The notes below the pieces were generated by a model. It was not told where the DNA came from. It saw only the letters and a program-made list of their open reading frames with translations, and did not search any database. Shown here in pieces: positions 4,132 to 32,000 of a stretch of 32,000 nucleotides of DNA. The stretch lies in assembly GCF_000582535.1 (NCBI RefSeq), contig NZ_CP006932.1, positions 210,001 through 242,000 of the forward strand, read 5' to 3'. The position numbers and the translations under genes were made by a program. The first letter of the stretch is position 1; every line of letters starts with the position of its first letter. This DNA comes from Candidatus Saccharimonadota bacterium. GTDB lineage: Bacteria > Bacillota_I > Bacilli_A > Mycoplasmatales > Hepatoplasmataceae.

Positions 4132-5343
4132 ATGTATTGATTTAAAAGAGTACTTTGAGCCTTTTTCTTATTTTTTTGATTATTTATCTGTTGATTAATA
4201 GTGTTTTTCTTTTTAAAACCACAAGATAATAGTTTTATTTATGATTTTTTAAATAAATATAATCCAATAGAATATATTCCAGAAAATTCTCAACAACATC
4301 CAGGAATAAATTATCAAATTCAATTTGATCAAAAAGTAGAAAAACCGATTGGCTGAAGTGAATTTACTTCAGGAAATCCATCAGAAATTGAAGATTATGT
4401 AGAAAAAAATGTAACTTATGATTCTTCTGTTAATAATATTAATGTTTCAAATTTAGGTAATTATTCTGCTGATATTTATTTTTCAAGTGATCCAACAACA
4501 TGAGAAGATCCAAATATTGATAACCCTTATGGAAACGGGCGATCTTATGAAGTTGTCGGAATTCAAATATCTTATCTTGTTGGTGTATTAAATGTTGTTG
4601 ATTTAGTAAAAGGAGGGGATTTTGAATTTAATCCAATTTGAGATAGTAATGATCTTATTAATCCAGATGATCCAAATTACGATCCTTTAAATACTCCGCT
4701 TACTATTAGAAAAGATGATCCAAGTACATGAACTTTGGAATATCATTTAAATGATATTTCTACTGATCATAGAAATCCATTAGAAAACATTATATTTTAT
4801 AGTTTTTGAATTAATGTTATTTATGAAGATACAGAAAGCAATCAATTATTTATGTCTACTGATTTTTCAGGAATGGATCGCGGATTTGTTGCAAATGATC
4901 ATCAAGAATATAATCAAAATGTAAAAATACAATGAAAAAGGGATAATGGAACTTTTGCTACTGATTATTATAATGGAGACCCAACTGATACTAGAGGACT
5001 TTTATATCCAGAATATGATGAAGTTTATTTTCAATATCAAGATCAAACAGAAAATCCTGTTGATGATATTTCAACTTTAGATTCAATAGTTATACAAATT
5101 CTTAATGTTAATTTATTATCGGTTGCTTATGATAATAATTTACCTGATTGAATAAATGATCACTATGATCAAATTATTTCAAATTTAAATGATACTTTAT
5201 CTTGAGTCGCTTATGTTGTAATTTGTTTTCTTATTACATTTATAATGGCTTTAATTGCTTTAATCTTTTTATTTATTAGTTCCTCTTATAAAAGTAGCGA
5301 TTCCTATATTGAAAAGAAAAATAATAAGCAAAATAAAGAATAA
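4132..5343 (+). CDS. hypothetical membrane protein (N-terminal and C-terminal TM helices, about 330-aa central domain)
   Basis: RBS AGGAG at 4122-4126, ATG at 4132, and hand translation is open to TAA 5341-5343 with 13 in-frame TGA codons. N-terminus MYWFKRVLWAFFLFFWLFICWLIVFFF, C-terminus WVAYVVICFLITFIMALIALIFLFI. It is invisible in the standard-code ORF track. I recognise no family. Confidence 0.6.
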
Positions 5344-5482: not shown

Positions 5483-8404
5483 ATGAAAAAATTTTCAATT
5501 TTATTTCTTATTCCTATTTTGTTATTAGGTATAAAAACTCCTAAATTAAAGGAATTAAATGATATAGAAATAAGTCAAAATGATACTATTATTAGTTTAT
5601 CTTTGAATTCTTATCATAGTGGAATTACCGTTAATACTAATAATGATGGTTACGCCGATACTCTTTATATGTGAGGAGATAATTCTTTTGGTCAACTTGG
5701 TGATGGAACAACAGAAGATTCTTTAGTTCCAATAAAAATAATTCCTCAAGGACAAGCTGATTGAAGCGGTAATTTAATTGATTTATCTTTAGGAGATTCT
5801 CATTCAGGAGTAACAGTTGATACTGATTTAGATGGTTATGCTGATACACTTTATATTTGAGGATCAGATAAATTTGGTCAAATTGGAAATGGATCAATTA
5901 GCAATAATATTTTAATTCCAATAAAAATAACTCCTCAAGGACAAACTGATTGAAGCGGTAATTTAATTGATTTATCTTTAGGAGATTATAATTCAGGAGT
6001 AACAGTTGATACTGATTTAGATGGTTATGCTGATACACTTTATATGTGAGGGTTAAATAATAGCGGTCAAATTGGAAATGGATCAAGTGGAAATAATATT
6101 TCAATTCCAACAAAAATAACACCTCAAGGACAAACTGATTGAGGTGGTAATTTAATTGATTTATCCTTAGGATACAATCATACAGGAGTAACGGTTGATA
6201 CTGATTTAGATGGATTTGGTGATACTCTTTATATGTGAGGAGATAATACATATGGTCAAATTGGAAATGGATCAAATGGCAATAATATTTTAATTCCAAC
6301 AAAAATAGCACCACAAGGACAAACTGATTGAGGTGGTTATTTAATTGATTTATCTTTAGGAAATACTAATACTGGAATTTTAATTGATAGTGATTTTGAT
6401 CAAAATGCCGATACTCTTTATATATGAGGAGATAATCTATATGGTCAAATTGGTGATGGAACAACAAAAGATTCTTTAGTTCCAAAAAAAATAACACCTC
6501 AAGGACAAACTGATTGAGGTGGTAACTTAATTGATTTAGCTTTAGGCCCATCAACTCGAAGTGCAGGAGTTTTAGTTGATGTAAATAATGATCAAAATGC
6601 CGATACTCTTTATATGTGAGGAGATAATTCTTCTGGTCAACTCGGAGATGGAACAACAAAAGTTTCTTCAATTCCAAAAAAAATAACACCTCAAGGACAA
6701 ACTGATTGAAGTGGTAATTTAATTGATTTATCTTTAGGATCATCTCATTCGGGTGTAATAGTTGATATTGATTTCGATGGTTATGCGGATACACTATATA
6801 TGTGAGGATATAATGCTTTTGGTCAACTTGGAGATGGAACAACAATAAGTGAAAGTTATCCAAAATTAATTATTTCATCTTCTCCGTTTTTTATCAAAAA
6901 TTTAGATTTTTTTAGTTATAACAACAAAATTGAATTTAATCTTGAAATAGATGATTATCAAAATATTATAAATGAAGCCCCAGAAGTAATATTAACTGAT
7001 CAAAATGATATTCAATATCAAACAACTTTTATTGCTGATAAATCAAATATTGATAATGATCAATACTATTATCAAGTTAATAATACTTTATATGGCGATA
7101 GTTATAACTTTACAGAAATTTTAATAAATGATAACAGTTTTAACATTGAGCAAAATCAAATATTAACTGATTATTTAATTTCTAATTATAGTTTTATTTC
7201 CTCTACCGAAGAAGAAGCAATTTTATCACTAGATTTAAGTCAAAATAGTGATAATTTTAATCTTGATAATTACACAAATGAACAAAAGCAAATAAATGTT
7301 AATTATACAAATCTTGATAATAATATTAATAATTCACAGCAATTTATTTTAGATCAAACAAATCAAATAAAATTAATAAATCTAAATGCAGAAACAAATT
7401 ATCAAATAGATTCAATTCAATATTTTTATGAAGATGGAAATTATAAATATACAATTGATCAAGAAGCGATGCAATTTCAAACAATTCCTGCAAATCCTAT
7501 TATTTTAGCAGATTCAATTTTAATTATAGAAAATTCAATTACAGCGAATTCTTTTCAATATACAATTGAAATTAATAATTTAAAAATAAATGAAACAAAA
7601 GATAATTTTACACAATATGATATAAATAATGGTATTTGATTAATTGATGAAAATGGCGAAAGTTATAATTCTTCTTTTATTGATGCAAAATTAATTACAA
7701 ATGGAGAAATTAATGGAACACAGAATTATCAATTAACTTTTTTGCAAGAAAATTTAATTAGTGGTCAAACTTATAATTTTACTGGAATTGGTTTTAATGA
7801 TCCAAATGGATCAAATCCTGATACGGTAAATTTTTCAAATTTAATTATAGTTGAGACGACTTTAGTAAATAAAGCCTTTGTTGATAATTCATTTTTAATA
7901 GATCAAAATTCAATTACAACAAATTCTTTTCAATATACAATTGAAATTGATAATTTAATATTAAGTAATGACTTAGAAGAAGAACCTATTTTTTCAAATT
8001 TTGATTTAAATGGAATTCTTTATTTAAAAGATCAAAATAATAATATTTATTCTTCTTATTATATTTCGAATAGTGCTTTAAATCTTGGAATAGGAGAAGA
8101 AGAAGGAACATTTAAATATCAATTTAGATTTGAAGTTAATAATTTAGAACCTAATACTAATTATAATTTTATTAGTTTAAGCTTTACAGATAATTTTGAT
8201 GATACATCTCTAGATATTTCAGAAAATGGTCAAATTATAACTGATAGTAATGCTTCCGCTAAGATAATTATTTATACAATAATTATTATCTTAATATTAA
8301 TTATATTGTTAACTATAATTTTATTATTTATTGATTTAAAAATGAAAAATAAAACAAAAAGAATGGCTGAAGCATTAGATAATCCTGATAATTATAATAA
8401 TTAG
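5483..8404 (+). CDS. surface-anchored RCC1-like seven-blade beta-propeller repeat protein (973 aa) with repeated-module stalk and C-terminal TM anchor
   Basis: Track ORFs 5483..5674 and 7742..8404 share a frame, and hand translation between them is open with many TGA=Trp. The N-terminus is signal-like (MKKFSILFLIPILLLGI). There are seven repeats of LGxSHSGVTVDTDLDGYADTLY(M/I)WGxNxxGQ(L/I)GDGT...P.KITPQGQTDW(G/S)GNLIDL. The C-terminus IIIYTIIIILILIILLTIILLFI is followed by a basic tail. Confidence 0.85.
5590..6860 (+). repeat. in-frame tandem coding repeats, period 186-192 nt, about 7 copies (propeller blades)
   Basis: The conserved Trp TGA of the LY(M/I)WG motif occurs at 5672, 5858, 6047, 6236, 6425, 6617 and 6803. 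Long stretches are nearly identical, e.g. caaggacaaactgattgaggtggtaatttaattgatttatc. Confidence 0.9.
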
Positions 8405-11772: not shown

Positions 11773-11832
11773 ATTATTTTGTTATAATTCAATAAATTTT
11801 TAAAATAATATCATAAGAAGGTAAATTAAATA

Positions 11833-13539
11833 ATGTATGCGAGAAATTTATGTATAAAAGAATATTTTGAAATCAATTTTTTTGATATTCCTCATTTTCA
11901 AAGAAGTTATGTTTGAAAAAAAGGAGAAATTGATGAAATTTATGATGATTTTTATATTTTTTGATTAAATAATAATGTCAAAGAGAATTCTAATATTTTT
12001 CTTGGAAGTATTTTTATATTTAAAGAAAGTAATTGGAATACAATAATAGATGGTCAACAAAGAACAATTTTTTTATATATTTTATTAACATGTTTTAAAA
12101 AAAATATTGATAATTGAAAAAAATCAGGAAATAATATAGAATCAATTTTAGAAAATTGTTCTGAAGATCAAAAAATTATGTTTAAGGATATATTGGATTG
12201 ATTTGAAAAAAGATTTATGTTTTTAGAAATAAAATATCATAATAATAAATTAATTTGAAATTCTGAAAAAGAATCATTTATAATTGAAAATAAAAAATTT
12301 ATTCAAATGAATAATCATTTTAAATATTTAATGAAAAAAATTCAAAATGATAATAAAATGAAAGAAATAAGAAATATAATTTCAATATCAAATTTTATTT
12401 TAAAAAAAATAAACATAACTTTAAATTCAATTGATAATAATGATTCTATAAATGATATTTTTGAGTCAATTAATTCAAAAGGAAAAAAATTAACTACTTT
12501 AGATTTAATAAGAAATGATTTTTATAAAAAAAATAAAAATTTATTAAAGGAATTAGATTATATAATTGAAGAAAAAAAAATTATACAAAATAATATTGAA
12601 ATTATTTTAAATGTTTTTATTTGTACAAAAAGAAAAAAATTTTTTCCTAATAATTTAGTTTATAGAGAATTAAAAAAAATTTTTAATAATAATGAAGATA
12701 AAATAGAGAATTTGTTAGAAATAATTTCTTTTTACAATAAATATTTTTCAGAAAAAATAAATAGTAAAAATTATTTTCAAAAGTGAATTTTTTTTATTGC
12801 TGAAAAATTTAATTTAAAACAATTTAAGAAAATATTTTTATTGTATATTTGAGAAAATAGAAGTTTAAAATATGATGATGAATTTTTAAAAAAAATTTTA
12901 TTAAGTATTATTTATTTTATAAATTTAAAAAATAACAGAGCAAATGAAATAGAAAGATTAATGATTAGTAATAAAAATCAATTTATAAATAATATTTTAA
13001 TTAATAATGAATTTGAATTATCTAAATTAAATTTTTGATTTAAAGATAATTATAATAATTTCATTGATCTTAATGAATTTAAAGAAGATATAAAAATGAT
13101 TTATTTATTTTATTTTTTGAATATAAAGGAAATTGATAATGCAGAACATTGATGAAATATAATTCATAAAAATATAGAGCATGTTAAATCTAAATCAATA
13201 TGTAAAGAAAAGAATATTAATTGATGTGAAAACATTGGTAATATAATTTTTTATGATTCTAAGAAAAATAAAATAGCAAGTGATTTGGATTATATAGAAA
13301 AATTAAATAGATTTTATAATGATCCAAATGGTAGAATGAGTATTAATTATAATGGTAAAAATGGAGATCCTGTTTATATAATGTACAATTATATTACAGA
13401 ATTAAAAGGAAAGATTTGAGATTTTAATACAATTAAAAATAGAAATTTTGATATATTAAATAATATAAAAGAAAAATTTCTAGAAAATTTTTCAAATTCA
13501 AATTTAAGAATAAGTAAATTTAATTATTTAGATAGATAA
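11833..13539 (+). CDS. DUF262 + DUF1524 (GmrSD-like, ParB-type NTPase/HNH-like nuclease) protein, 568 aa
   Basis: ATG 11833 is in frame with track ORF 12307..12786 and open through many TGA codons to TAA 13537-13539. The N-terminus has the DUF262 hallmarks IPHFQRSYVW and IIDGQQRT. The C-terminus has a DUF1524-type pattern, NIEHVKSKS...NIGNIIFYDSKKNKIASD. Confidence 0.7.
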
Positions 13540-13658
13540 CCAATATGCTAGTTTAATTTTATATTAAAATTATCTTGTTAAGTGCATTTAAAATTATTAT
13601 ATTCAATTTATATAATTGGGTTGTGTTTTTCGCAAATTATTTATATCAAATATTTTTA

Positions 13659-14180
13659 TTAATTTTCTATGATAATTTTAAAAAGCTTAAATTTATTTAC
13701 TGTAATTGGTTCTTCTCAATTTAGATAACAAATATTATTATTTAAATTTATCTTTATCAAATTTTCTCTTTCTTTTGATGATATTTGATAAAGAACAATC
13801 TTGTAATTACTTGTTGTATTAGGATTACTTACATAATAAGGTCTTATTTTATTTTCTGAATTTTTATATTTGTAATCTAAAATTTTATTATCATTTAGAT
13901 AAATTATTTCTTTTTCTTTTATTTTTAAACTAGCATTTATATACTTTTTAAATTTTCTTTTAAGATTACTGAAATATTTTGTATCGTTTTGATCTATTAA
14001 GAAATTATTGTAATTTTCTAAATATTGATTTTTAATATTAATTCTTTTATATTCAATAAATTTATAATATTTATCTGTTCAATTTTTAAATTTATTGAAT
14101 ATATTATTGTTTACTGAGGATGTAATAAAAATATAAAATTTAAGATTTGAGAGATTTACTTTATTATTTTTTTCTTTCAT
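13659..14180 (-). CDS. hypothetical protein, 173 aa (paralog A of an unrecognised family)
   Basis: Reverse ORF from ATG 14180 to TAA 13659-13661 with two TGA=Trp. Starts MKEKNNKVNLSNLKFYIF and ends ICYLNWEEPITVNKFKLFKIIIEN. It aligns end to end with the reverse ORF at 16174..16740. Confidence 0.6.
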
Positions 14181-14338
14181 TTTAATAATAAATCTTAAAT
14201 CTTATATATTATTTTAAATTTCAATTTAAAAAACATATTTAATCTCCCTATCTAATTAAATTATATTATTTTTAAATTATTTAATTTAATTAAAAAAATT
14301 AATATTATAATTAATTTAAAGAAGATATTAAAAATAAA

Positions 14339-15352
14339 ATGATAGATTGTAATTTAATTGAAGAATTGATAATTAAAGAGAATTTATATTTAGCATTGAA
14401 TAATTACTATGATTTTAGAAGTAAGTTTTCTTTTAGAAATTTTATATTAAATTTGGATTCAGCTTATTTGTTTTTTTTTACATATTTTTTGGAAAAAAAT
14501 AAAATTCCTTATAAAAAAGAAAATCAAAAAAATAAAGATAAAACAAAAGAGGTGGAACAAATATATAATGATTTTAATCATTATATATTTGAAAATAAAT
14601 TATTCGAACTTCCAAAAAATTTTAAAAAAAATTATGAAACTTTAAGAATTTGAAGAAATATTTTTTATCATAACCCTTTTCCTGATTCAAAAAATAAATA
14701 TTATGAATTTAATTTAAAATATTACACAGAAAAAAATTGGGATAAAAATATTAAAAAACTTTTTTTGAATTTTACAAATATAATAATTTCAAATTATATT
14801 TATTTTTATGAAAAGATTTTTAATAAAAAGATAGATGTAATTTATCCCTTTTATAAAGATTTTTCTTTTTCTGATAATTTTTCTGAAAAAATGCAAAAAG
14901 TATTTTTAAAAATTCCAAAATTAAAAGAAATTGATAATTTTTATAATGAAAATTTATTTTTCATTAATAAAATAAATCCTAATGATTATTATGGGTCAGA
15001 AAAATTATTGAAAAATATTTTAGATGATTTTATATATTTAAAATATAGAAAGTCTTACTTAAATAAAAAAAATGAAGCAACAGGATCAGAAGCTTATAAA
15101 ATTTATTATTGTTTAAATATTCATAATGATTTTTATACTAATATTAATAATAGGAAATGAATTCAAAAATATCATTTTCCTCAAAATAAATTACATGGAA
15201 TCAATTTAAAAGCTTATCATAAAGATTTAATTCCCTATATAAAATATATAGTAGATAATTTTGATAAATTTGAAATAAGAAAAAGATGAATTAATAAAAA
15301 ACCATTTTTATTATCAGAAATAAAAAAGTGAAATATTGAAAAATATAGATAA
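14339..15352 (+). CDS. hypothetical protein, 337 aa, possible Abi-like HEPN-domain protein (RNxxxH motif)
   Basis: Track ORFs 14339..14653 and 14765..15160 share a frame, and the ORF is open through TGA codons to TAA 15350-15352. Motif LRIW-RNIFYH (14654-14671) fits the HEPN R-x4-6-H signature. The size and the N-terminal LALNNYYDF resemble my memory of AbiD/AbiF (Abi_2) proteins. No profile search was possible. Confidence 0.55.
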
Positions 15353-15353
15353 A

Positions 15354-15381
15354 AAAAAGAGAACTAAAAGTTCTCTTTTTT
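15354..15381. terminator. bidirectional terminator hairpin between convergent genes
   Basis: aaaaagagaac-taaaa-gttctcttttt, with an A-run 5' and a T-run 3', so it can serve both strands. Confidence 0.65.
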
Positions 15382-15390
15382 AAAATATTA

Positions 15391-16173
15391 CTATTTTATT
15401 AATTCTGGATTTGTATCTCTTGAATCAATATTTGTATAATAATCATTTGATAATTTTAATTTATTATGATTATCAATTATTCCTAAAATATTATTACTTT
15501 TATAAAGAATATATGTATCTTCTGCTAATTCTTCTGCTGATTTTCTTTCTCAACTTTTATAATTATTTATTCAGTCTTTTGGAAGATTAGATTTTTTAGA
15601 TGCTCTTTCTGCAAATTCTGTGCTTGTTCCTGCAGGAGCCATTACTTTTACTTTTATTTTTTTATTTAATTTTTGAAGTTCTTTTGCTACATTTTCTGTT
15701 CACGCACTTACAAATACTTTTGTACTACAATATGTAATTGCAGTAGGAAGAATTTTATATCCGCCTACTGAAGATACATTTATTAATTGAGCATCTTTAT
15801 CCAAATTATCTTTTATAAACATCATTGAAAGTAATGTAAGAGCTTTAATATTTAAATCTAACATTTTTTCAGTTTTATCAATGTTAGCTTCTCATACTAA
15901 ATTTTGATCACCAAATCCGGCATTATTTATAAAAATTTCTATTTGATATTTTTTTACATCTTGATAAAATTTTTTTATTTGATCTGAATTTGATAAATCT
16001 ATTGTAAATACAATAACATCAATTTTATATTTACTTTCTAATTGATTTTTAATTTCATTTAATAAATTTGTTCTTCTTGCTGCAATTATAAGATTATGTC
16101 CTTCTCTTGCAAATTTTTCAGCAAGTGCTTTTCCGATTCCTGAACTTGCACCTGTAATTAATGTATATTTCAT
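15391..16173 (-). CDS. SDR-family NAD(P)-dependent oxidoreductase (paralog 1, 260 aa)
   Basis: Track ORF 15892..16212 extends through TGA codons to TAG 15391-15393. Contains MKYTLITGASSGIGKA (TGxxxGxG), NNAG and the catalytic YCSTK (YxxxK). The start is taken at ATG 16173 by alignment with paralog 2. The frame stays open upstream into the preceding gene. Confidence 0.8.
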
Positions 16174-16740
16174 ATTTATTATCTTTCTGCACCATATTAT
16201 ATTATTTTTCACTGAATTAGATTCAAGAATTATTTTAAATAATTTAAATTTATTTACTGTAATTGGTTCTTCTGAATTTAAATAACATATATGATTATTT
16301 ATTTCAATTTTTTTTAAACTCGGTCTTTCTTTTGAAGAAATTTGATAAATTACAACTTTATGATTATTTTTTGTATTCGGATCATTTATAAAATATGGTC
16401 TATTTTTATTCTCTGAGTCTTTATATTTATAATCTAAAATTTTATTATCATTTAAATAAATTACTTCTTTATTTTTTACTTTTAAATTAGCATTTACATA
16501 TTTCTTAAATTTTTTCTTAAGATTACTAAAATATTTTGTATCATTTTCATCTATTAAAAAATTATCATATTTTTCAAAATACTTATCTTTACAATCAATC
16601 CTTTGATATTCGATAAAATTTTGATATTTATTCGTTCAATTTTTAAATTGTTCTAAAACATTAATTCCTACTTTTTCTGAAATAAAAATTTTAAATTTTA
16701 TTTCTAGCAAATTAAATTTATCAAAATTTTTTTCTTTCAT
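16174..16740 (-). CDS. hypothetical protein, paralog B of the 13659..14180 family; no stop codon, reads in frame into SDR paralog 1
   Basis: ATG 16740. Starts MKEKNFDKFNLLEIKFKIF and ends ICYLNSEEPITVNKFKLFKIILESNSVKNNIIWCRKIIN, running directly into MKYTLITGASS. Hand translation finds no TAA/TAG between 16740 and 15394. Under code 4 a single 449-codon ORF 15391..16740 is equally callable. Confidence 0.55.
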
Positions 16741-16750
16741 TTCATTTTAA

Positions 16751-17506
16751 TTAAACTCAACGAATATCATAATAACCATCATTCATTTTTAATTCATTAT
16801 TTTTAATTATTCCAAGAATATTATCACTTTTATATAATTTGTAAGTTTCCTCTGCTAATTCTTGTGCTGATTTTTTATTTACTCTATTTTTATATTCTTC
16901 AATTTGTTTTTGATTATATTTTGTTTTTGTTAAGGCTCGATCGTTAAATTCACTTTCGGTTGCTCCGGGGGCTAAAATTTTTACTTTAATTTTTTTATTT
17001 AATTTTCTTAATTGTTTTGCAACGCTTTCTGTTCATGATGATACAAAAACTTTTGAAGCTGAATAACTTATTGCTTTTGAAAAAATACTATAACCAGCAA
17101 CAGAAGATACATTTATTAATTGAACATCATTATCTAAATTATCTTTAATAAACATTATTGAAAGTGTTGTTAATGATTTAATATTTAGATCAATCATTTT
17201 TTCAATTTTTTTAATATCTGAATCTCAAGGTAAATTTACATCTCCAAATCCAGCATTATTTATAAAAATTTCAATTTGATATTTTTTTACATTTTTATAA
17301 AAATTTTGTATTTCATTAGAATTAGATAAATCGACAGTAAATACAATAACATCAATTTTATATTTACTTTCTAATTGATTTTTAATTTCATTTAATAAAT
17401 TTGTTCTTCTTGCTGCAATTATAAGGTTATGTCCCTCTTTTGCAAATTTTTCAGCAAGTGCTTTTCCGATTCCTGAACTTGCTCCTGTAATTAATGTATA
17501 TTTCAT
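16751..17506 (-). CDS. SDR-family NAD(P)-dependent oxidoreductase (paralog 2, 251 aa)
   Basis: RBS AGGAG lies 6 nt upstream of ATG 17506. Track ORF 17225..17527 continues through TGA codons to TAA 16751-16753. Contains TGASSGIGKA, NNAG and YSASK. Confidence 0.85.
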
Positions 17507-17738
17507 TTTTATCTCCTTTCTAAACAAATTATATTATTTTTTAAATGATTATTTAAATTTTCAATATATGTATCTTTCTTTATTTTAATTCATATTATTT
17601 TCTAAAAAAAAGATATATTTTCTTAAAAAATAAAAAGAATATAATTATTTTGAAAAGTGAAAATAAAATAAGCTTTTTTTAGGGGATTTTTAATTTTTAT
17701 GTATTAAAAATTAATAATTAAATAAAGGGATAAAAATT

Positions 17739-21639: not shown

Positions 21640-21674
21640 TATAAAAAGAAAGAATTAATATTAATAAATATATT

Positions 21675-22616
21675 ATGAAAAATAAACGCATAGTCCTTGC
21701 TTTAGGTGGTAATGCTTTAGGTGATACTCCAAAAGAACAACAAGAAGCAGTAAAAAAAACAGCAATTTCTATTGTTGATTTAATTGAAAAAGGATATCAA
21801 ATTTTAATAGGACATGGAAATGGACCTCAAGTTGGGATGATTTCTTTAGCTTTTGATGAAGCTTCAAAAATTAATAAAAAGATACCAAAATTAGATTTAG
21901 TTCTTGCAGGAGCAATGTCTCAAGGTTATATAGGAATTCATTTAAAAAATGCAATTGATAATGAACTTTTAAAAAGAAAAATTAATAAAAATGTTTATGC
22001 ATTAATTTCACAAGCAATAGTTGATCATAATGATCCAGCTTTTAAAAATCCAACAAAACCAATTGGAGGATTTTATTCAAAAGAAGAATCAAAAGAATTA
22101 GCAAAAAATACTACATGAAAATTTATAGAAGATGCTGGAAGAGGCTATCGAAGAGTTGTTCCTTCTCCTAAACCAATTACATTAATGGAAAAAGATTTAA
22201 TTAATAAAGGATTAGATGCTGGTTTTATTTTAATTGCTGGAGGTGGAGGTGCTATTGCAACTTATAAAGAAAATGATAAATATAATATGATTGATGCAGT
22301 AATAGATAAAGATTATACTGCAGAAATAATGGCTGAAATGATTGATGCTGATTTATTTATAATAGTAACTGCAGTAGATGGAATTTATTTAGATTATAAT
22401 ACACCAAACCAAAGAATTCTTTCTAATCCAAAAATAAAGGATTTAAAAAAACTTCTTGATCAAAAAATATTTCCTTCTGGTTCTATGGAACCTAAAGTTG
22501 AAACAGCAGTAAAATTTGCTTCTTCCAAAAAAAGCAGAAAATCAATTATTACTTCGCTTGCAAAATTAAAAGAATCTTTAGAAGGAAATAAATATGGGAC
22601 ACATATTGAAAACTAA
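21675..22616 (+). CDS. arcC: carbamate kinase
   Basis: Track ORFs 21675..22118 and 22185..22616 share a frame and join over one TGA. Contains RIVLALGGNAL, GHGNGPQVG, AGRGYRRVVPSP and GGGGAIA. Confidence 0.95.
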
Positions 22617-23392: not shown

Positions 23393-24157
23393 TTACATTC
23401 AAATTTTACGTAAACGTTTTCTTAAAATGAATTTTTTAAATACAGGATGAACAATTCCAACTGTTTTTTTTGAATTATATAATTTTCAAGTATATTCAGC
23501 TAGTTTCTGTGGGTCTTTTCCTTTACTATTAAAAATTTCAATTAGTGTTTTTTTATTTTCTTTTTCAATATTTGCATTTAGTACTGCTACTTCTGCAAAT
23601 TCTGTTTTTGTAATACTTGGAGCTAAAACTTTAACTTTTAATTTTGCTTTGCTTTTTTTAAGAATTTTTGTGATTATTTCACTATATACAGATACATAAA
23701 ATTTAGTAGCTGAATAGATAGATTCTCTTCCTCAAGCCATATATCCTGCTACAGAAGAAACATTGATAATTTGTGATTCTTTTTCTAAATTATCTTTGAT
23801 AAATAATGTTGTAAGGATTGTAAGGGCTTTTATATTTAAATCAATCATTTGTTCTGCCTTTTTAAGATCAGTATCTCATGGTTTTGCTTCATCACCAAAA
23901 CCAGCATTATTTACCAAAAGATTAATATCATTTTGCTTGATTTGTTGATAGAATTTATAAACATTTTCTGAAATTGATAAATCATATACATAAACTAAAA
24001 CTTTTATTTTATATTTATCTTCTAATTCTTTTTTTAAATTATCAAGTAATTCTTTTCTTCTTGCAACAATTATTAAATTATATTTCTCGCTTGCAAATTT
24101 TATTGCAATTTCTTTTCCAATTCCAGAACTTGCTCCTGTTATTACTACATATTTCAT
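23393..24157 (-). CDS. SDR-family NAD(P)-dependent oxidoreductase (paralog 3, 254 aa)
   Basis: Track ORF 23876..24157 continues through TGA codons to TAA 23393-23395. Contains MKYVVITGASSGIGKE, NNAG and YSATK. Confidence 0.85.
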
Positions 24158-24187
24158 ATTTTCGTTTTTCTTTCTTTTATTTAATTT

Positions 24188-24463
24188 TTAATAGTATTTT
24201 GAAAATACTATCATTGGTGTTAAAACATGATTATAAAGTTGACCTAATACTAATTGACTATTAGTATTAGAATCTCACACATAAACAATATCTCCTAATA
24301 CATTATTATTTTAATCTAAAAGTAACATAGCATCATCATTTCCTACTTGTTTTTTAATAATATTATCATTTTAATCTTTTTCTTGTTATGTTATTTTTGT
24401 AATTGGAAAATTTAAAGTATTTGATTCTCCATTTTCAATTTGTCCATATTGATTTTTCTTCCA
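24188..24463 (-). pseudogene. inverted remnant of about 1.5 RCC1-like propeller blades with in-frame stops
   Basis: One reverse frame reads LWKKNQYGQIENGESNTLNFPITKIT*QEKD*NDNIIKKQVGNDDAMLLLD*NNNVLGDIVYVWDSNTNSQLVLGQL. It aligns with a one-residue gap to the blade consensus YMWGDNxYGQIGNG...IPTKITPQGQTDWGGNLIDL..G...GV.VD.D.DG.GDTLYMWGDNxxGQ. Confidence 0.6.
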
Positions 24464-25075
24464 CAAGCAATAGTTGATCATAATGATCTAGCTTTTAAAA
24501 ATCCAACAAAACCAATTGGAGGATTTTATTCAGAGCAAGAGGCAAAAAAAATAACAAAAGAGACTGGATGAAAATTTATAGAAGATGCTGGAAGAGGCTA
24601 TCGAAGAGTTGTTCCTTCTCCTAAACCAATTACATTAATGGAAAAAGATTTAATTAATAAAGGATTAGATGCTGGTTTTATTTTAATTGCTGGAGGTGGA
24701 GGTGCTATTGCAACTTATAAAGAAAATGATAAATATAATATGATTGATGCAGTAATAGATAAAGATTATACTGCAGAAATAATGGCTGAAATGATTGATG
24801 CTGATTTATTTATAATAGTAACTGCAGTAGATGGAATTTATTTAGATTACAATACACCAAACTAAAGAATTCTTTCTAATTCAAAAATAAAGGATTTAAA
24901 AAAACTTCTTGATCAAAAAATATTTCCTTTTGGTTCTATGGGTCCTAAAGTCGAAACAGTTATTAAATTTACTAATTCAAAATTAAATAGAAAATAAATT
25001 ATTATTTCGCTTGATAAATTAAAAGAATCTTTAGAAGGAAATAAATACAGAATTCATATTGAAAATAATTATTAA
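24462..25075 (+). pseudogene. truncated carbamate kinase copy (3' two-thirds of arcC) with premature stops
   Basis: Homologous to arcC from codon ~110 (SQAIVDHND) to the end, and it lacks the 5' third. CAA is replaced by TAA at 24863-24865, and there is a second in-frame TAA near 24996. Track ORF 24638..24865 is identical in protein to arcC 22185 onward. Confidence 0.85.
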
Positions 25076-25097
25076 ATTAATTAATATATGATTTTTA

Positions 25098-25105
25098 TGT
25101 ATAAT
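25098..25105 (+). promoter_or_regulatory. extended -10 promoter element TGTATAAT
   Basis: Exact TGTATAAT 23 nt upstream of ATG 25128. RBS AAGAGG at 25113-25118. Confidence 0.4.
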
Positions 25106-25127
25106 TTTTTATAAGAGGTCTTTTATA

Positions 25128-28103
25128 ATGAAAAAAAATTTTATATTTTCGATATTATTATTTTTAATTACATCTTTTTCTTTTAAATCATTTGATTTAA
25201 TTTTTGATAATAAAAATATAATTGAATCTTTAGATCAAAATGTAAAAGTTTTAGATTATGAAATGGCTGATTCTACTGCTGGTGTTATTGTTGATACAGA
25301 TAGTGATTATTTGGGAGATACACTTTATATGTGAGGATTAAATAGTCGTGGTCAAATTGGTGATGGAACAACTACACTTGCCACTGATCCAAAAATGATA
25401 ACTCCAACTGACCAAACAGATTGAGGTGGTAATTTAATTCAATTTGAATCATCACTTTATAATTCAGGTGTAACGGTAGATACTGATTATGATGGCTATG
25501 CAGATACAATTTATATTTGAGGAGATAATCAATATCATCAAATATTCAATGATGAAAGTGAAAGTAAAACTATTTTATTTCCTACTCTTGTTTTACCTTC
25601 TAGTGGATCTTGAAATGGAAATATTATTGATTTTTTTCTTGGAGACTCATATGTTGGTATTTTATTAGATACTGATTATGATGGATTTGGTGATGATTTA
25701 TATACTTGAGGTAATAATAATAATGGGGAACTTGGAAATGGAACAACTCAAACAGCTTCTGAACCTGTAGAAATATTTCCATCTGGACAAACTTCTTGAA
25801 ATGGTAATATAACTGATATTTATGGATATAATTCTACTTTTCTTTTATTAGATACTGACTATGATGGATATGCAGATACTGGATATTCTTGAGGTAATAA
25901 TAGTAATTATAAATTAGGTATTAATAGTACATCATCAAGTGTTACTACTCCAACAGAAATCGTTTCAAATGGGGGAACTTGAAATGGTAATATCCTTGAT
26001 GTTTCTTCAAATTCTGATAATTCTATGCTTTTACTTGATACAAATTTTGATGGATATGGAGATGAAGTTTATTTATCAGGGACTAATTATGAATTTCAAC
26101 TTGGAATTGGTGGCAATGAAAATTATGTAAAGCACTCTATTTTTTATCCTGCTAGTCATACTTGAGGTAATGGTTATATTATTGATGTTTCAATGGGCAA
26201 AAATTATTCAGTAATTATTGTAGATACTGATTTAGATGGATATGCAGATGCTTTTTATGGTGATGGTTATAATAGTCATGGACAACTTGGAACATCTAAT
26301 TATGCAGGTAGTCGTAAAGGACCAAGAAAACTTACAAAAACCTTTGATAGAAATGATTTTTCTAGTTATTATAAATATAATTTTATGCAAATTGAAACAG
26401 GAACTAATTCTACAGGAATTTTAGTTGATACTGATCTTGATGGATATGGCGATACATTATATATGTCAGGAGCAAATGTAAATTCTGATTTCGGTAATAG
26501 TATTATTTCTTCTGGAGATTATAAAACTCCTATTGCTACAAATTCAACTTATGATTTTTTAATTCAGGATTTGTATTTTGATTTTGATGGAGTTTTGTTA
26601 TCAATAGATTTAAAATTAAATGATTATCAAAATATTTTTAATGAAGAAACATTACCCACTAATGTTTTATTAATTGATGATAATAATATCAGTCACCAAA
26701 CAATTTTTGAAGAAGATTTATCAAATATTACAGATGATCAATATCATTATAAAGTTGAAGATATTGAAGGTGTTCAAACTTATATATTTAAAAATATATC
26801 AATAAATGATAATATTTTTAATTTAAATGATGAGCAATTTTCTACTGATTATTTAATATCAGATTATCAAATTTCTAATATTTCAGAACAGTCAGCGACA
26901 ATTAATTTAAATTTTGAAAATAATAGTGAAGAATTTGATTTATTAAATTACACTTCTTCTGAACGAAAAATTAAAGTAAATTATACTGATTTGGATCAAA
27001 ATATCTCTAATTCCCAAGAATTTGTAATTGATGATTCCTATGAAATTACACTAATAAATTTAAATGCTGAATCAAATTATCAAATAGATTCAATTCAATA
27101 TTTTTATCAAGATGAAAATTATAAACATACTATAGATCAAGAAAAAACACAATTTCAAACATCTTCTGCTATACCTTTAATAGAATCTGATAGTATAAAA
27201 TCTATCGATAATTCAATTACAACAAATTCTTTTCAATATACAATTTTAATTGATAATTTAAAATTAAATCAAACAAAAGATAATTTTACACAATATGATA
27301 TAAATAATGGTATTTGATTAATCGATGAAAATAATGAAAATTATAATTCAACTTATATTAATGCAAAAATAATTAATTCTGGTTCAATAAATGGAACAGG
27401 AAAATATCAATTAACATTTAAGCAAGATCAATTAATTGAAAATACAACATATAATTTTATTGGTATAAGTTTTGATGAGCCTTCAAGTTCTAGTGATCCT
27501 AATATAGTATTTTTTTCTAATGTTTTTTCAATAACAACAGCTTCTGCAAATAAAGAAATTATTCCTTCTACTTTTTCAATAATTGAGGATTCAATTACAA
27601 AAACTTCATTTCAATATACAATTGAAATAGATAATTTGTTTTTGATAGAGGATTCTTTATTAATTAAAAATAATCTTGAAGCAGAAATAAATTTTAGTAA
27701 TTTTAATCTTGATGAAGGAATTTATTTAATAGATGATAATGGAAATATATATAATTCTTTTTATGTAAATGATAGTTCACTTTATCTTGGAGAAGGAAAA
27801 GATGAAGGAACTTCAAATTATCAATTTACATTTGAACAAAATAATCTTGAAGCAGGCAGAACATATAATTTTGTTGGAATAGGATTTACTGATTTAGAAG
27901 AAGACTTTATTAATTTTGACTCTTCAATAGCAATTAACACTGTTCCTAATAATACACAAATGATAGTAATTATTATTATTATCATTATTTTAATCATTAT
28001 TTTGCTACTTATTTTTATCTTATTATTTGTTGATTTAAAAATGAAAAAAAATACAAAAAAAATGAATAATAAACTTAATAATCCTAATGGTTTGGAAGAT
28101 TAA
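25128..28103 (+). CDS. surface-anchored RCC1-like seven-blade repeat protein, paralog 2 (991 aa)
   Basis: Track ORFs 25128..25334, 26193..27317 and 27636..28103 are all in one frame, and the gaps checked by hand are open through TGA codons. The N-terminus is signal-like. There are seven degenerate blades (GDTLYMWGLNSRGQIGDGT through GDTLYMSGANVNSDFG). It has the same stalk modules and the same TM plus basic tail as 5483..8404. Confidence 0.85.
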
Positions 28104-28261
28104 GATTTATTTTTAATTTCTTTGTTTTATAAAATTAATTATTAAATATATTTATTTTAGTCGTAATTTTTTTATAGCTACTAAAAAAAACAACAAGAAG
28201 AATTAAAAAAAGTAATTCTAATTGTTAATTTAATTTAAAAAAGAAAATTAAGAAAATATTT

Positions 28262-28799
28262 AATGCTTTAATTTCACAATCATAGCCAATCTTAATGATT
28301 CTGTTTTTAAAAATTCAGCAAAACAAATTGGAGGATATTTTATTCAAAAGAAGAATCAGAAAAATTAGCAAAATCTAATGGATGAAAATTTATAGAATAT
28401 TTTGTAAGAATTTATTGAAAAATTGTTTCTTTTCTTAAATCGATTACATTAATGGTAAAAATATTTAATTAAAAAAATTTAGATAATTGATAAAGATTAT
28501 ACTGCTGAAAAAATGTCTGAAATGATTGATATTGATTTATTTGTAATAGTAACTGCAGTAGATGGAATTTATTTAGATTACAATACACCAAACCAAAGAA
28601 TTCTTTTTAATCCAAAAATAAAAGATTTAAAAAAACTTCTTAATTAAATAATATTTCCTTCTGGTTCTATGGGTCCTAAATTGGAAACAAATATTAAATT
28701 TACCAATTCCAAATTAAATAGAAAATCAATTATTACTTCGCTTGATAAATTAAAAGAATCTTTAGAAGGAAATAAATACGTAACTCATATCGAAAAATA
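28262..28799 (+). pseudogene. more degraded truncated carbamate kinase copy
   Basis: aatgctttaatttcacaatcatagcc...caaattggagga aligns to arcC 22000-22075. There is an internal deletion of about 95 nt relative to arcC 22215-22310, plus multiple stops and frameshifts. The 3' end gaaggaaataaatacgtaactcatatcgaaaaataa matches the arcC terminus. Confidence 0.8.
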
Positions 28800-28829
28800 A
28801 TTACTAAATTAATAAGTATATGATTTTTA

Positions 28830-28837
28830 TGTATAAT
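28830..28837 (+). promoter_or_regulatory. extended -10 promoter element TGTATAAT
   Basis: Same gatttttatgtataatt context as at 25091-25107. Confidence 0.4.
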
Positions 28838-28856
28838 TCTTTATAAGAGGTCTTTT

Positions 28857-31826
28857 TTGAAAAAAAATTTTATTTTTTCCATATTGTTGTTTTTAATTAC
28901 ATCTTTTTCTTTTAAATCATTTGACTTAGTTTTTGATAATAAAAATATAGTTGAATCTTTAGATCAAAATGTAAAAGTTTTAGATTATGAAATGGCTAAT
29001 TCTACTGCTGGTGTTATTGTTGATACAGATAGTGATTATTTGGGAGATACACTTTATATGTGAGGATTAAATAATTATGGCCAAATTGGTGATGGAACAA
29101 CTACACTTGCAACTGATCCAAAAATGGTAATTCCAACTGACCAAACAGATTGAGGTGGCAATTTAATTCAATTTGAATCATCTGCTTATAATTCAGGTGT
29201 AACAGTAGATACTGATTATGATGGTTATGCAGATACAATTTATATTTGAGGAGATAATAGATATCATCAAATATTTAACAACGATGAAAGTGGTTCTATC
29301 TTATTTCCTACTCTTGTTTTACCTTCTAGTGGATCTTGAAATGGAAATATTATTGATTTTTTTCTTGGAGATGCATATGCTGGTATTTTATTAGATACTG
29401 ATTATGATGGATTTGGTGATGATTTATATACTTGAGGTAATAATAATAATGGGGAACTTGGAAATGGAACAACTCAAACAGCTTCTGAACCTTTAGAAAT
29501 ATTTCCATCTGGACAAACTTCTTGAAATGGTAATATAACTGATATTTATGGATATAATTCTACTTTTCTTTTATTAGATACTGATTATGATGGATATGCA
29601 GATACTGGATATTCTTGAGGTAATAATAATAATTATAAATTAGGTGTCAATAGTACATCATCAAAAGTTACTACTCCAACAGAAATCGTTTCAAATGGAG
29701 GAACTTGAAGTGGTAATATTCTTGATGTTTCTTCAAATAGTAATAATTCTATGCTTTTACTTGATACAAATTTTGATGGATATGGAGATGAAGTTTATTT
29801 ATCAGGGACTAATTATGAATTTCAACTTGGAATTGGTGGCAGTAATAATGTAAAGCACTCTATTTTTTATCCTGCTAGTCATACTTGAGGTAATGGTTAT
29901 ATTATTGATGTTTCAATGGGTGTAAATTATTCAGTAATTATTGTAGATACTGATTTAGATGGATATGCAGATGCTTTTTATGGTGATGGTTATAATAGTC
30001 ATGGACAACTTGGAACATCTAGTTATGCAGGTAGTCGTAAAGGACCAAGAAAACTTACAAAAACCTTTGATAGAAATGATTTTTCTAGTTATTATAAATA
30101 TAATTTTATGCAAATTGAAACAGGATCTAATTCTACAGGAATTTTAGTTGATACTGATCTTGATGGATATGGTGATACATTATATATGTCAGGAGCAAAT
30201 GTAAATTCTGATTTCGGTAATAGTATTATTTCTTCTGGAGATTATAAAACTCCTATTGCTACAAATTCAACTTATGATTTTTTAATTCAGGATTTGTATT
30301 TTGATTTTGATGGAGTTTTGTTATCAATAGATTTAAAATTAAATGATTATCAAAATATTTTTAATGAAGAAGCATTACCCACTAATGTTTTACTAATAGA
30401 TAATAATAATATCAGTCATCAAACAATTTTTGAAGAAGATTTATCAAATATTACAGATGATCAATATCATTATAAAGTTGAAGATATTGAAGGTGTTCAA
30501 ACTTATATATTTAAAAATATATCGATAAATGATAATATTTTTAATTTAAATGATGAGCAATTTTCTACTGATTATTTAATATCAGATTACCAAATTTCTA
30601 ATATTTCAGAACAATCAGCGACAATTAATTTAAATTTTGAGAATAATAGTGAAGAATTTGATTTATTAAATTACACTTCTTCTGAACGAAAAATTAAAGT
30701 AAATTATACTGATTTGGATCAAAATATCTCTAATTCACAAGAATTTGTAATTGATGATTCCTATGAAATTACACTAACAAATTTAAATGCTGAATCAAAT
30801 TATCAAATAGATTCAATTCAATATTTTTATCAAGATGAAAATTATAAACATACTATAGATCAAGAAGAAAAACAATTTCAAACATCTTCTGCTATACCTT
30901 TAATAGAATCTGATAGTATAAAATCTATCGATAATTCAATTACAACAAATTCTTTTCAATATACAATTTTAATTGATAATTTAAAATTAAATCAAGCAAA
31001 AGATAATTTTACACAATATGATATAAATAATGGTATTTGATTAATCGATGAAAATAGTGAAAATTATAATTCCACTTATATTAATGCAAAAATAATTAAT
31101 TCAGGTTCAATAAATGGAACAGGAAAATATCAATTAACATTTAAGCAAGATCAATTAATTGAAAATACAACATATAATTTTATTGGTATAAGTTTTGATG
31201 AACCTTCAAGTTCTAGTGATCCTAATATAGTATTTTTTTCTAATGTTTTTTCAGTAACAACAGTTTCTGCTAATAAAGAAATTATTCCTTCTACTTTTTC
31301 AATAATTGAAGATTCAATTACAAAAACTTCATTTCAATATACAATTGAAATAGATAATCTGTTTTTGATAGAAGATTCTTTATTAATTAAAAATAATCTT
31401 GAAGCAGAAGTAAATTTTAGTAATTTTAATCTTGATGAAGGAATTTATTTAATAGATGATAATGGAAATATATATAATTCTTTTTATGTAAATGATAGTT
31501 CGCTTTATCTTGGAGAAGGAAAAGATGAAGGAACTTCAAATTATCAATTTACATTTGAACAAAATAATCTTGAAGCAGGTAGAACATATAATTTTGTCGG
31601 AATTGGCTTTACCGATTTAGAAGAAGATTTTATTAATTTTGACTCTTCAATAACAATTAATACTGTTCCTAATAATACACAAATGATAGTAATTATTATC
31701 ATTATCATTATTTTAATCATTATTTTGCTACTTATTTTTATCTTATTATTTGTTGATTTAAAAATGAAAAAAAATACAAAAAAAATGAATAATAAACTTA
31801 ATAATCCTAATGGTTTGGAAGATTAA
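28857..31826 (+). CDS. surface-anchored RCC1-like seven-blade repeat protein, paralog 3 (989 aa), apparent TTG start
   Basis: Track ORFs 28857..29063, 29916..31040 and 31365..31826 share one frame. It is near-identical to 25128..28103, with only a handful of substitutions in the 374-aa track segments. The position homologous to the ATG of paralog 2 is TTG, after a 3-nt deletion. Confidence 0.8.
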
Positions 31827-31959
31827 GATTTATTTTTAATTTATTTGTTTTAGTGGTATTTTTTTTATAGCATATTAAAAAAAACAATAATTCTAATTTT
31901 TAATTAAATCGAAAAATAATATCAAATTTTAATAGTACATCAGAATTGACTATAATTTA

Positions 31960-32000
31960 AAATTATTTATTTAGCATTTGATGAAGCTTTAAAAATTAAT
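31960..32000 (+). pseudogene. start of a further arcC-derived fragment (runs off the window)
   Basis: atttatttagcatttgatgaagctttaaaaattaat aligns to arcC 21840-21876 (atttctttagcttttgatgaagcttcaaaaattaat). Confidence 0.55.

Follow-up and report, generated by a model that had tools for sequence, protein, structure and literature searches.

Hepatoplasmas are considered ectosymbionts of the digestive glands of isopods, and proteins with similarity to RCC1 were recently described in them: Kawato et al. (2024, PMC10928387) found the family by screening for eukaryote-like proteins and reported 7-10 RCC1-like proteins per Hepatoplasma genome. Their ColabFold model of one member, the 991-amino-acid (aa) HCTKY_2170 of Tokyo2021, consists of a seven-blade propeller and four immunoglobulin (Ig)-like folds, and they concluded that the family resembles RCC1 in its fold and left its role unassigned. 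Here we analyze another member, encoded by a gene that we call gene A, in a stretch of 32,000 nucleotides of Candidatus Hepatoplasma crinochetorum (contig NZ_CP006932.1, positions 210,001 to 242,000 of the forward strand; this whole stretch is called the window below, and coordinates are counted from its first nucleotide). The architecture of a propeller joined to Ig-like domains was already published in 2024, and what is new is a predicted face of seven Ca2+ sites, one in an aspartate-rich loop of each blade, on the side of the propeller to which the stalk is attached.

Loops of this general kind are known from the calcium blades of other beta-propellers. Rigden et al. (2011, PMC3123361) defined these by the motif Dx[DN]xDG together with an acidic residue two positions after the glycine, with asparagine nearly as frequent as aspartate at position 3, and they discussed the repeated convergent evolution of the motif. 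The ions in the solved calcium-blade proteins are mostly structural or regulatory (PMC3123361), and the integrin and VCBS propellers hold their DxDxDG sequence in the loop between strands A and B of the blade (Pereira and Lupas 2021, PMC8023676). A search of the literature turned up no paper that links the term "calcium blade" with RCC1.

The product of gene A, referred to as protein A, is 100% identical to NCBI protein P0001 of Ca. Hepatoplasma crinochetorum (its features are collected in Table 1), and its propeller is a member of the RCC1 family by Pfam and by fold search alike. Seven repeats with a spacing of 62-64 aa are found. The Pfam family PF00415 (RCC1) matches seven stretches with E = 1.6e-54 and 182.7 bits against a cutoff of 21.7, and PF25390 (RCC1-like domain, RLD), which describes the whole domain, scores 184.6 bits against a cutoff of 150; an NCBIfam scan found no family. 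An AlphaFold2 (AF2) model of protein A, built from an alignment of 22 family members, has a mean predicted local distance difference test score (pLDDT) of 87.2, with values mostly above 90 in the propeller, and folds the repeats into seven blades of four strands each. In a Foldseek comparison with the Protein Data Bank (PDB), the best match is UVR8 (template modeling score, TMt, 0.91; root-mean-square deviation 2.4 Å), followed by HERC2, RPGR and RCC1, and the top 50 PDB matches are RCC1-like domains only, with neither an integrin nor BLIP-II among them. The propeller chain begins with strand A of blade 1 and ends with strand D of blade 7, an arrangement that we take to be circularly permuted relative to RCC1.

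Protein A shares with the RLDs (RCC1, UVR8, HERC2, RPGR) and with the bacterial RCC1/BLIP-II group not only the seven four-stranded blades but also the signature [YF]-x-W-G-x-N-x-x-G-Q-[LI]-G. The conservation of this signature, and of the loops discussed below, was assessed in a set of 131 blades from 19 Hepatoplasma paralogs and orthologs, some of which are only 37-45% identical to protein A. The signature is present throughout this set, with Y in 100%, W in 92%, G in 99%, N in 93%, G in 78%, Q in 75% and the last G in 89% of the blades. Like many bacterial RCC1 members, protein A is predicted to be extracellular and is fused to Ig-like modules, and it differs from BLIP-II, a stand-alone secreted inhibitor of the same fold class that uses one face to bind an enzyme, by its stalk and transmembrane (TM) anchor. 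The propeller is preceded by a signal-like N-terminus, MKK ahead of 14 hydrophobic residues, in which no lipobox cysteine is found and which AF2 models as disordered (pLDDT <50 for aa 1-30); it is followed by an all-beta stalk whose last two domains are internal repeats, by a single TM segment, and by a short tail that opens with a basic stretch. A signal-like sequence at the N-terminus, one TM segment near the C-terminus and a basic stretch directly behind it lead us to infer that protein A is exported with its bulk outside the cell, and by the positive-inside rule the tail would be cytoplasmic.

Much of this architecture had been proposed in a sequence-only reading of the window, which called for repeats of 62-64 aa with RCC1 elements, a seven-blade propeller, and a signal-like N-terminus, stalk and C-terminal TM anchor, and which the Pfam matches, the model and the fold search now uphold. 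The same reading had named RCC1 (PF00415) and FG-GAP (PF01839) as the Pfam families to search, of which the first was found and the second was not matched at E <= 1. It had counted three paralogs and one remnant in the window, and all four were recovered (Table 1). Its view that the protein does not belong to a characterized Mollicutes family is correct only in part: the protein is annotated as an RCC1 repeat protein and belongs to the family of Kawato et al., with which it shares the N-terminal seven-blade propeller, the four Ig-like domains and the multi-copy occurrence (PMC10928387). PMC10928387 makes no mention of the Asp loops, of calcium (the word has zero occurrences), of the TM anchor or of the gradation of loops within the family.

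The strands of the blades were assigned by alignment to UVR8 together with DSSP analysis of the AF2 model, which identify LIDLSLG as strand A, HSGVTVD as B, TLYxWG as C and IPxKI as D. The first blade strand of UVR8 ends at the Cys of C-GWRHT, adjoining the central channel (PMC9546227), and because this Cys marks the end of strand A, the alignment and DSSP place the Asp loop of protein A in the B-C hairpin. Relative to UVR8 the loop inserts five residues into the hairpin just ahead of the LYxWG strand, and in the model it caps a beta-hairpin in all seven blades alike (e.g. strand 107-113, loop 114-121, strand 122-128). The strict pattern Dx[DN]xDG is found in four of the seven loops and a relaxed pattern in all seven. 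The motif [DN]x[DN]x[DN][GQ]xxD occurs seven times in protein A, against 0.07 expected from 20,000 composition-preserving shuffles in which the maximum was three.

The loops also account for much of the unusual charge of the propeller, contributing -25 of a net charge of -39 from seven segments of nine residues each; canonical bacterial RCC1 propellers have net charges of -1 to -12. Clustered loop carboxylates of this kind are hard to explain without bound cations. Protein A is set apart from the RLDs by the five-residue B-C extension of its blades, by its net charge, and by the scarcity of the RCC1 hallmark His, which occurs in only about 30% of the family's blades. In a side observation, the Pfam family DUF5726 (PF18996) gave a sub-threshold match (23.5 bits against a cutoff of 25) at 5969-6049 (aa 163-189), which covers exactly the B strand, Asp loop and C strand of one blade; DUF5726 is also precomputed for P0002 and P0005.

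Conservation across the 131 blades is concentrated at particular positions of the nine-residue loop. Asp dominates positions 1 (96% of the blades), 5 (90%, with N in a further 6%) and 9 (96%); position 3 is split between D (56%) and N (41%), and position 6 is mostly G (71%). The remaining positions are T in 59% (position 2), variable (position 4), Y in 66% (position 7), and A in 61% or G in 31% (position 8). The four putative ligand positions hold 3.2-4.0 bits of information, on par with the structural core Y-x-W-G and well in excess of the RCC1 hallmark His. The strict pattern Dx[DN]xDGxx[DE] is present in 82 of the 131 blades and the full ligand set in 125, and conservation of the ligand positions is about 96%. 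A second conserved element is the D-to-A linker between blades, Q-x-D-W-x-G-N, with W in 67%, G in 78% and N in 61% of the blades. The conserved linker Trp and the aromatic residue at loop position 7 are both found only in Hepatoplasma. The two covary significantly overall (p ~ 1e-7) and not within Hepatoplasma (p = 0.13), and the covariation, being a lineage effect only, was rejected as a sign of contact between them in a joint pocket.

The sequence-only reading had likened the loop to those of integrin FG-GAP blades and of thrombospondin type 3 repeats, and had described an LG.SHSG element and a perfectly regular DTDLDGYAD insert in each repeat. The Asp motif is present in seven of seven blades as claimed, and is less regular than that, with DTDLDGYAD itself in two of the seven; similarly, the RCC1 elements are present while LG.SHSG is a loose pattern, given the rarity of its His. 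The comparison with integrins is apt at the level of the motif. Like the calcium blades of integrin alpha and other FG-GAP proteins, VCBS proteins, the PVL lectin, the YesW lyase and PilY1, the blades of the Hepatoplasma proteins carry Dx[DN]xDG with an acidic residue two positions after the Gly, Asn is common at position 3, the loop lies at the tip of a hairpin in several blades, and the setting is (as predicted) extracellular. The likeness even extends slightly past the motif, to a hydrophobic strand, DxDxDGxxD, a second hydrophobic strand and a Gly, and some bacterial chains combine RCC1 and FG-GAP domains (e.g. P0060, P0061, P0074 and P0103). One could therefore suppose that the blades are mosaic or homologous with integrin-type FG-GAP/VCBS calcium blades, and that the loop was inherited or transferred from them. 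Several results speak against such kinship. No match of protein A to FG-GAP/VCBS (PF01839, PF13517) or TSP_3 was found in Pfam at E <= 1, and an hhalign comparison of whole Hepatoplasma blades with 11 genuine FG-GAP/VCBS calcium blades, taken from other hits, gave a probability of 4% over only the 12 columns of the motif. Furthermore, the superfamily is RCC1 rather than VCBS/integrin, as in the 50 best fold matches, and the hairpin is B-C rather than A-B. Integrins carry the motif in three or four blades whereas protein A carries it in all seven. The graded intermediates described below, in which the loop appears to grow from the native RCC1 DG turn, complete the case, and we consider common descent with the FG-GAP blades very improbable and effectively refuted. 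Thrombospondin type 3 repeats are no closer, since the motif of protein A is embedded in RCC1 blades with a period of 62-64 aa. These comparisons support no relationship of the loop to either FG-GAP or thrombospondin type 3 sequences beyond the short motif.

The distribution of the loop argues for a local origin. Among the best 120 homologs from a collection of 5.8 billion proteins, an in-register loop was found only in Hepatoplasma proteins and in two proteins from mollicute metagenome-assembled genomes (MAGs). A profile search of 1.84 billion cluster representatives added 140 further proteins with about 3,520 recognizable RCC1 blades. This search was dominated by giant multi-propeller RCC1 proteins and serves as a negative control and as a source of six further mollicute family members: an Asp-type loop was found in 34 of the approximately 3,520 blades, all of them in six small proteins with a mollicute-style signal sequence, at least two of which also have a C-terminal TM anchor. 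In the proteins surveyed, no full Asp loop was found outside the Hepatoplasmataceae. About 98 of the 120 best homologs lack it, as do some 3,480 RCC1 blades in other representatives.

Shorter loops occur in deep-sea relatives within the Hepatoplasmataceae, and these can be arranged in a series. The B-C hairpin is short and canonical in Eubacterium, Lachnospiraceae and Cytophagales (e.g. TEDGSLYMWG, from a scan of reference genomes); it reads NDGxxDHLYTWG in Mycoplasma sp. Bg1 (L007) and in P0038, DTTxDGxADxLYMWG in MAG GLR43 (L004 and L005), and DT[DN]xDGYADTLYMWG in Hepatoplasma. Kawato et al. placed GLR43, Bg1 and Bg2 in the Hepatoplasmataceae, genus g_Bg2, with marine and semiterrestrial isopod symbionts included (PMC10928387). 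Because graded intermediates exist within this one family, the loop most likely arose independently, by stepwise extension of the native RCC1 DG turn within a family of crustacean-gut symbionts, which accords with the convergent origins of the motif in Rigden et al. If the loops do bind calcium, they would be the first example of a calcium blade beyond the integrin/VCBS lineage and would occupy a different hairpin; the progression from DG turn to NDGxxD to DTTxDGxAD to DT[DN]xDGYAD would be an unusually clear record of the building of a metal site by loop extension. For the biology of the symbiosis, the analysis singles out a multi-copy, rapidly duplicating family of predicted surface proteins as the foremost candidate for attaching this uncultured symbiont to its isopod host. 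If they bind no metal, the finding would be a lineage-specific decoration of a family that has already been described.

The placement of the loops on the propeller bears directly on what they might do. The strands of a blade alternate, and for this reason the B-C loops, the D-to-A linkers and both chain termini lie on one face. In the AF2 model the last D strand (457-465) is followed, after only four residues, by the first stalk strand at 470. The face that carries the loops must then be the one attached to the stalk rather than the membrane-distal one, since it also carries the termini and the stalk begins four residues on. The A-B turns and C-D loops form the opposite face, on which the most variable positions of the family are found (information of about 1 bit) and which differs between paralogs. 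Characterized RLDs bind their partners via this A-B/C-D face, as in the interaction of RCC1 with Ran and in the UVR8 dimer.

We propose that protein A is a type I membrane-anchored surface protein of an extracellular isopod-gut symbiont, in which the TM helix and basic tail would anchor the chain and the four Ig-like domains would hold the N-terminal propeller off the membrane. In this lineage the tight B-C hairpin of the RCC1 blade, canonically an x-D-G-x turn, is longer by five residues and forms the nine-residue loop D-x-[DN]-x-D-G-x-x-D. Each loop is predicted to bind one Ca2+ through the side chains of positions 1, 3, 5 and 9 and the backbone carbonyl of position 7, as in the integrin-type calcium blades. 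A propeller could offer up to seven such sites, about five of which would be canonical in protein A, with blades 1, 5 and 6 degenerate. The calcium would have a structural role, which is favored because the sites line the stalk-side face: in the gut lumen it would neutralize the charge of an otherwise very acidic propeller face and stiffen it, leaving the opposite face free to bind a host or luminal ligand. Taken as a whole, a stalk-side loop face stabilized by calcium and a variable distal face that binds ligand is a scheme that we regard as moderately probable. The analysis itself shows the gene, the RCC1 fold with stalk and anchor, the loop insertion, and the conservation and lineage restriction of the loop; calcium binding, membrane topology, surface exposure and ligand binding are predictions.

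Several points weigh against this proposal or limit what can be drawn from the data. Some of the sites may be inactive, since two of the seven loops of protein A carry Gln rather than Gly at position 6 and Asn occupies positions 1 and 3 of the blade 1 loop. Inter-blade conservation is partly inflated by recent amplification of the blades, whose DNA is 81% identical; the loop pattern nevertheless persists across paralogs that are only 37-45% identical. A profile of the loop alone, with 20 columns, gave a best E of 0.62 against PDB sequences, with no integrin among the matches, a result that is uninformative either way. AF2 does not model ions. Finally, the N-terminal hydrophobic segment lacks a recognizable cleavage motif, and if it remains uncleaved the topology would be that of a loop with two anchors.

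Some of these same points could be taken to mean that the Asp loops bind no specific metal, and are instead a lineage-specific, hydrogen-bonded extension of the hairpin, comparable in role to the metal-free Asp-box of sialidase-type propellers, or simply an acidic, hydrated surface, with a resemblance to calcium blades that arose by chance in a proteome rich in Asp and Asn and biased toward AT. The ectodomain is strongly acidic throughout, with a net charge of -54 on the motif-free stalk; several blades depart from the motif at positions 6 and 3, and the loop profile revealed no significant sequence link to a solved Ca-binding loop. Against this reading, conservation is centered on exactly the four ligand positions and the Gly, with positions 2, 4 and 7 much freer, and the calcium-blade rules (PMC3123361) are reproduced both in the mixture of D and N at position 3 and in the acidic residue that follows the Gly at a distance of two positions. 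Three to four carboxylates within nine residues, repeated sevenfold on one face, would also be destabilizing without counter-ions. The Asp-box in particular was considered for the loop and rejected by eye, as the sequence does not fit SxDxGxTW. On balance, loops without a metal are a fairly unlikely explanation.

A different possibility accepts the calcium and makes the loop face itself the functional one. Here the Ca2+ sites and the Q-x-D-W-x-G-N linkers would together form a multivalent Ca2+-dependent lectin or adhesin, or a mineral-binding surface, that fastens the symbiont to the epithelium of the isopod digestive gland, and the calcium would contribute to binding the ligand as well as to stability. 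Such a function would suit the ectosymbiotic habit ascribed to the hepatoplasmas (PMC10928387), and both loop and linker are conserved in every blade and across paralogs, as would be expected of the sevenfold repeated conserved sites typical of lectin propellers such as PVL and tachylectin (PMC8023676). The geometry is unfavorable, in that this face carries both termini with the stalk only four residues on, and is probably partly occluded and turned towards the membrane. In addition, the linker Trp and the position 7 aromatic that might line a binding site co-occur by lineage only (blade-level p = 0.13), and the ions in solved calcium-blade proteins are mostly structural or regulatory (PMC3123361). 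We consider the lectin function unlikely, and if it were nonetheless true, attachment of the symbiont would respond to luminal calcium. The luminal calcium of isopods changes with the moult cycle.

The RCC1 repeats, and the recovery of the family in a screen for eukaryote-like proteins (PMC10928387), might also suggest a eukaryote-like effector that enters host cells and targets their Ran or a different small GTPase, much as the RCC1-repeat effectors of Legionella do. The signal sequence, the Ig-like stalk and the C-terminal TM anchor predict instead an ectodomain tethered to the symbiont, and the closest sequence relatives of protein A are bacterial surface-type RCC1 proteins. Kawato et al., moreover, see a fold-level similarity, in bacteria that they take to be ectosymbionts (PMC10928387). 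An intracellular effector is in our view scarcely credible for protein A, and guanine-nucleotide exchange by the protein is unlikely given its predicted extracellular topology. Guanine-nucleotide exchange is the defining activity of RCC1 proper and not of the fold family.

Table 1. Gene A, the segments and Asp loops of its product, and related sequences in the window (coordinates are window positions; aa, residues of protein A)
Feature	Position	Strand	Basis
Gene A, RCC1-like surface protein (predicted), 973 aa	5483..8404	+	Open reading frame in translation table 4, ATG start, TAG stop
Signal-like N-terminus, MKK then hydrophobic run FSILFLIPILLLGI (aa 1-18)	5483..5536	+	Direct sequence reading
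Seven-blade RCC1-like beta-propeller, aa 35-465, 28 strands, blade order A-B-C-D	5585..6877	+	Pfam, AF2 DSSP, Foldseek
189-bp tandem DNA array encoding the blades, 6.4 copies, 81% matches	5645..6842	+	Tandem Repeats Finder
Blade 1 B-C loop NTNNDGYAD, aa 51-59, degenerate (N at positions 1 and 3)	5633..5659	+	
Blade 2 B-C loop DTDLDGYAD, aa 113-121, canonical Dx[DN]xDGxxD	5819..5845	+	
Blade 3 B-C loop DTDLDGYAD, aa 176-184, canonical	6008..6034	+	
Blade 4 B-C loop DTDLDGFGD, aa 239-247, canonical	6197..6223	+	
Blade 5 B-C loop DSDFDQNAD, aa 302-310, Gln for Gly at position 6	6386..6412	+	
Blade 6 B-C loop DVNNDQNAD, aa 366-374, Gln at position 6	6578..6604	+	
Blade 7 B-C loop DIDFDGYAD, aa 428-436, canonical	6764..6790	+	
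Stalk, four all-beta (Ig/fn3-like) domains, aa 470-920	6890..8242	+	AF2 DSSP, weak fn3 match
C-terminal transmembrane segment (predicted), aa 928-950	8264..8332	+	Kyte-Doolittle maximum aa 928-934; AF2 helix 925-966
Short tail opening with basic stretch DLKMKNKTKR..., aa 951-973	8333..8401	+	Sequence
Remnant, decayed RCC1 fragment, about 86 aa, about 1.3 blades, in-frame stops, pseudogene	24215..24466	-	tblastn E = 1e-5, 36% identity
Paralog B, 991 aa, identical to P0009	25128..28103	+	Asp loop in all seven blades
Paralog C, 989 aa from TTG start, tandem duplicate of B	28857..31826	+	ATG lost

Gene A was translated with genetic code 4, in which TGA specifies Trp. All 14 of its Trp codons are TGA and none is TGG, and 13 of the 14 TGA codons sit at the conserved WG and DW positions of the blades, so that the use of code 4 is validated from within the gene. 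Translation with table 11 splits the region into short fragments of open reading frames (ORFs), and table-11 tools also give spurious antisense ORFs inside gene A (e.g. at 5898-6314 and 6366-6863 on the minus strand). The G+C content of the window is about 20%, and a scan for promoters and terminators in DNA of this composition was uninformative, with 31 sites against 30.5 expected and no terminators.

The genes flanking gene A are housekeeping genes. Those downstream encode NusB, RsmH and FtsZ, and the upstream neighbors encode a PP2C phosphatase, a Ser/Thr kinase and an unannotated membrane protein. In Ca. H. scabrum an RCC1-like gene likewise occupies the slot between the kinase gene and nusB-rsmH. 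The unannotated neighbor, which adjoins gene A on its upstream side (4132-5343, plus strand), is an acidic protein of 403 aa with hydrophobic segments at both ends. It was weighed as a possible partner of gene A and dropped, as it matches no Pfam family and no homolog was detected at the syntenic H. scabrum locus.

Paralog B has the same length as the HCTKY_2170 protein modeled in PMC10928387, and its propeller is 40-45% identical to that of protein A, with a stalk that is about 55% identical. Paralog C arose with B in a tandem duplication (window 24866-32000) of about 3.7 kb, in which the two copies are 96% identical in nucleotide sequence, including the upstream intergenic region, and share a 671-bp stretch of 100% identity. 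The RCC1 remnant overlaps a second, truncated carbamate kinase gene (24416-24865, plus strand), which is a duplicate of the C-terminal part of arcC; the intact arcC lies at 21645-22616. This arrangement indicates that a rearrangement has left a scar between the arginine deiminase operon and paralogs B and C.

Two further regions of the window show signs of duplication or unusual composition. Three paralogous genes for short-chain dehydrogenases (SDRs) lie at 13659-17533 and at 23393-24187 on the minus strand, and one of them (15391-16746) has at its N-terminus an additional domain of about 190 aa; nearly the same sequence forms a separate ORF at 13659-14201. The segment between sepF and the SDR genes (11830-15352) is extremely AT-rich, with 13-16% G+C. 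It holds an ORF of 337 aa and another of 568 aa with a DGQQR motif that is, by eye, typical of DUF262/ParB-like nucleases, and it may represent a defense or mobile island.

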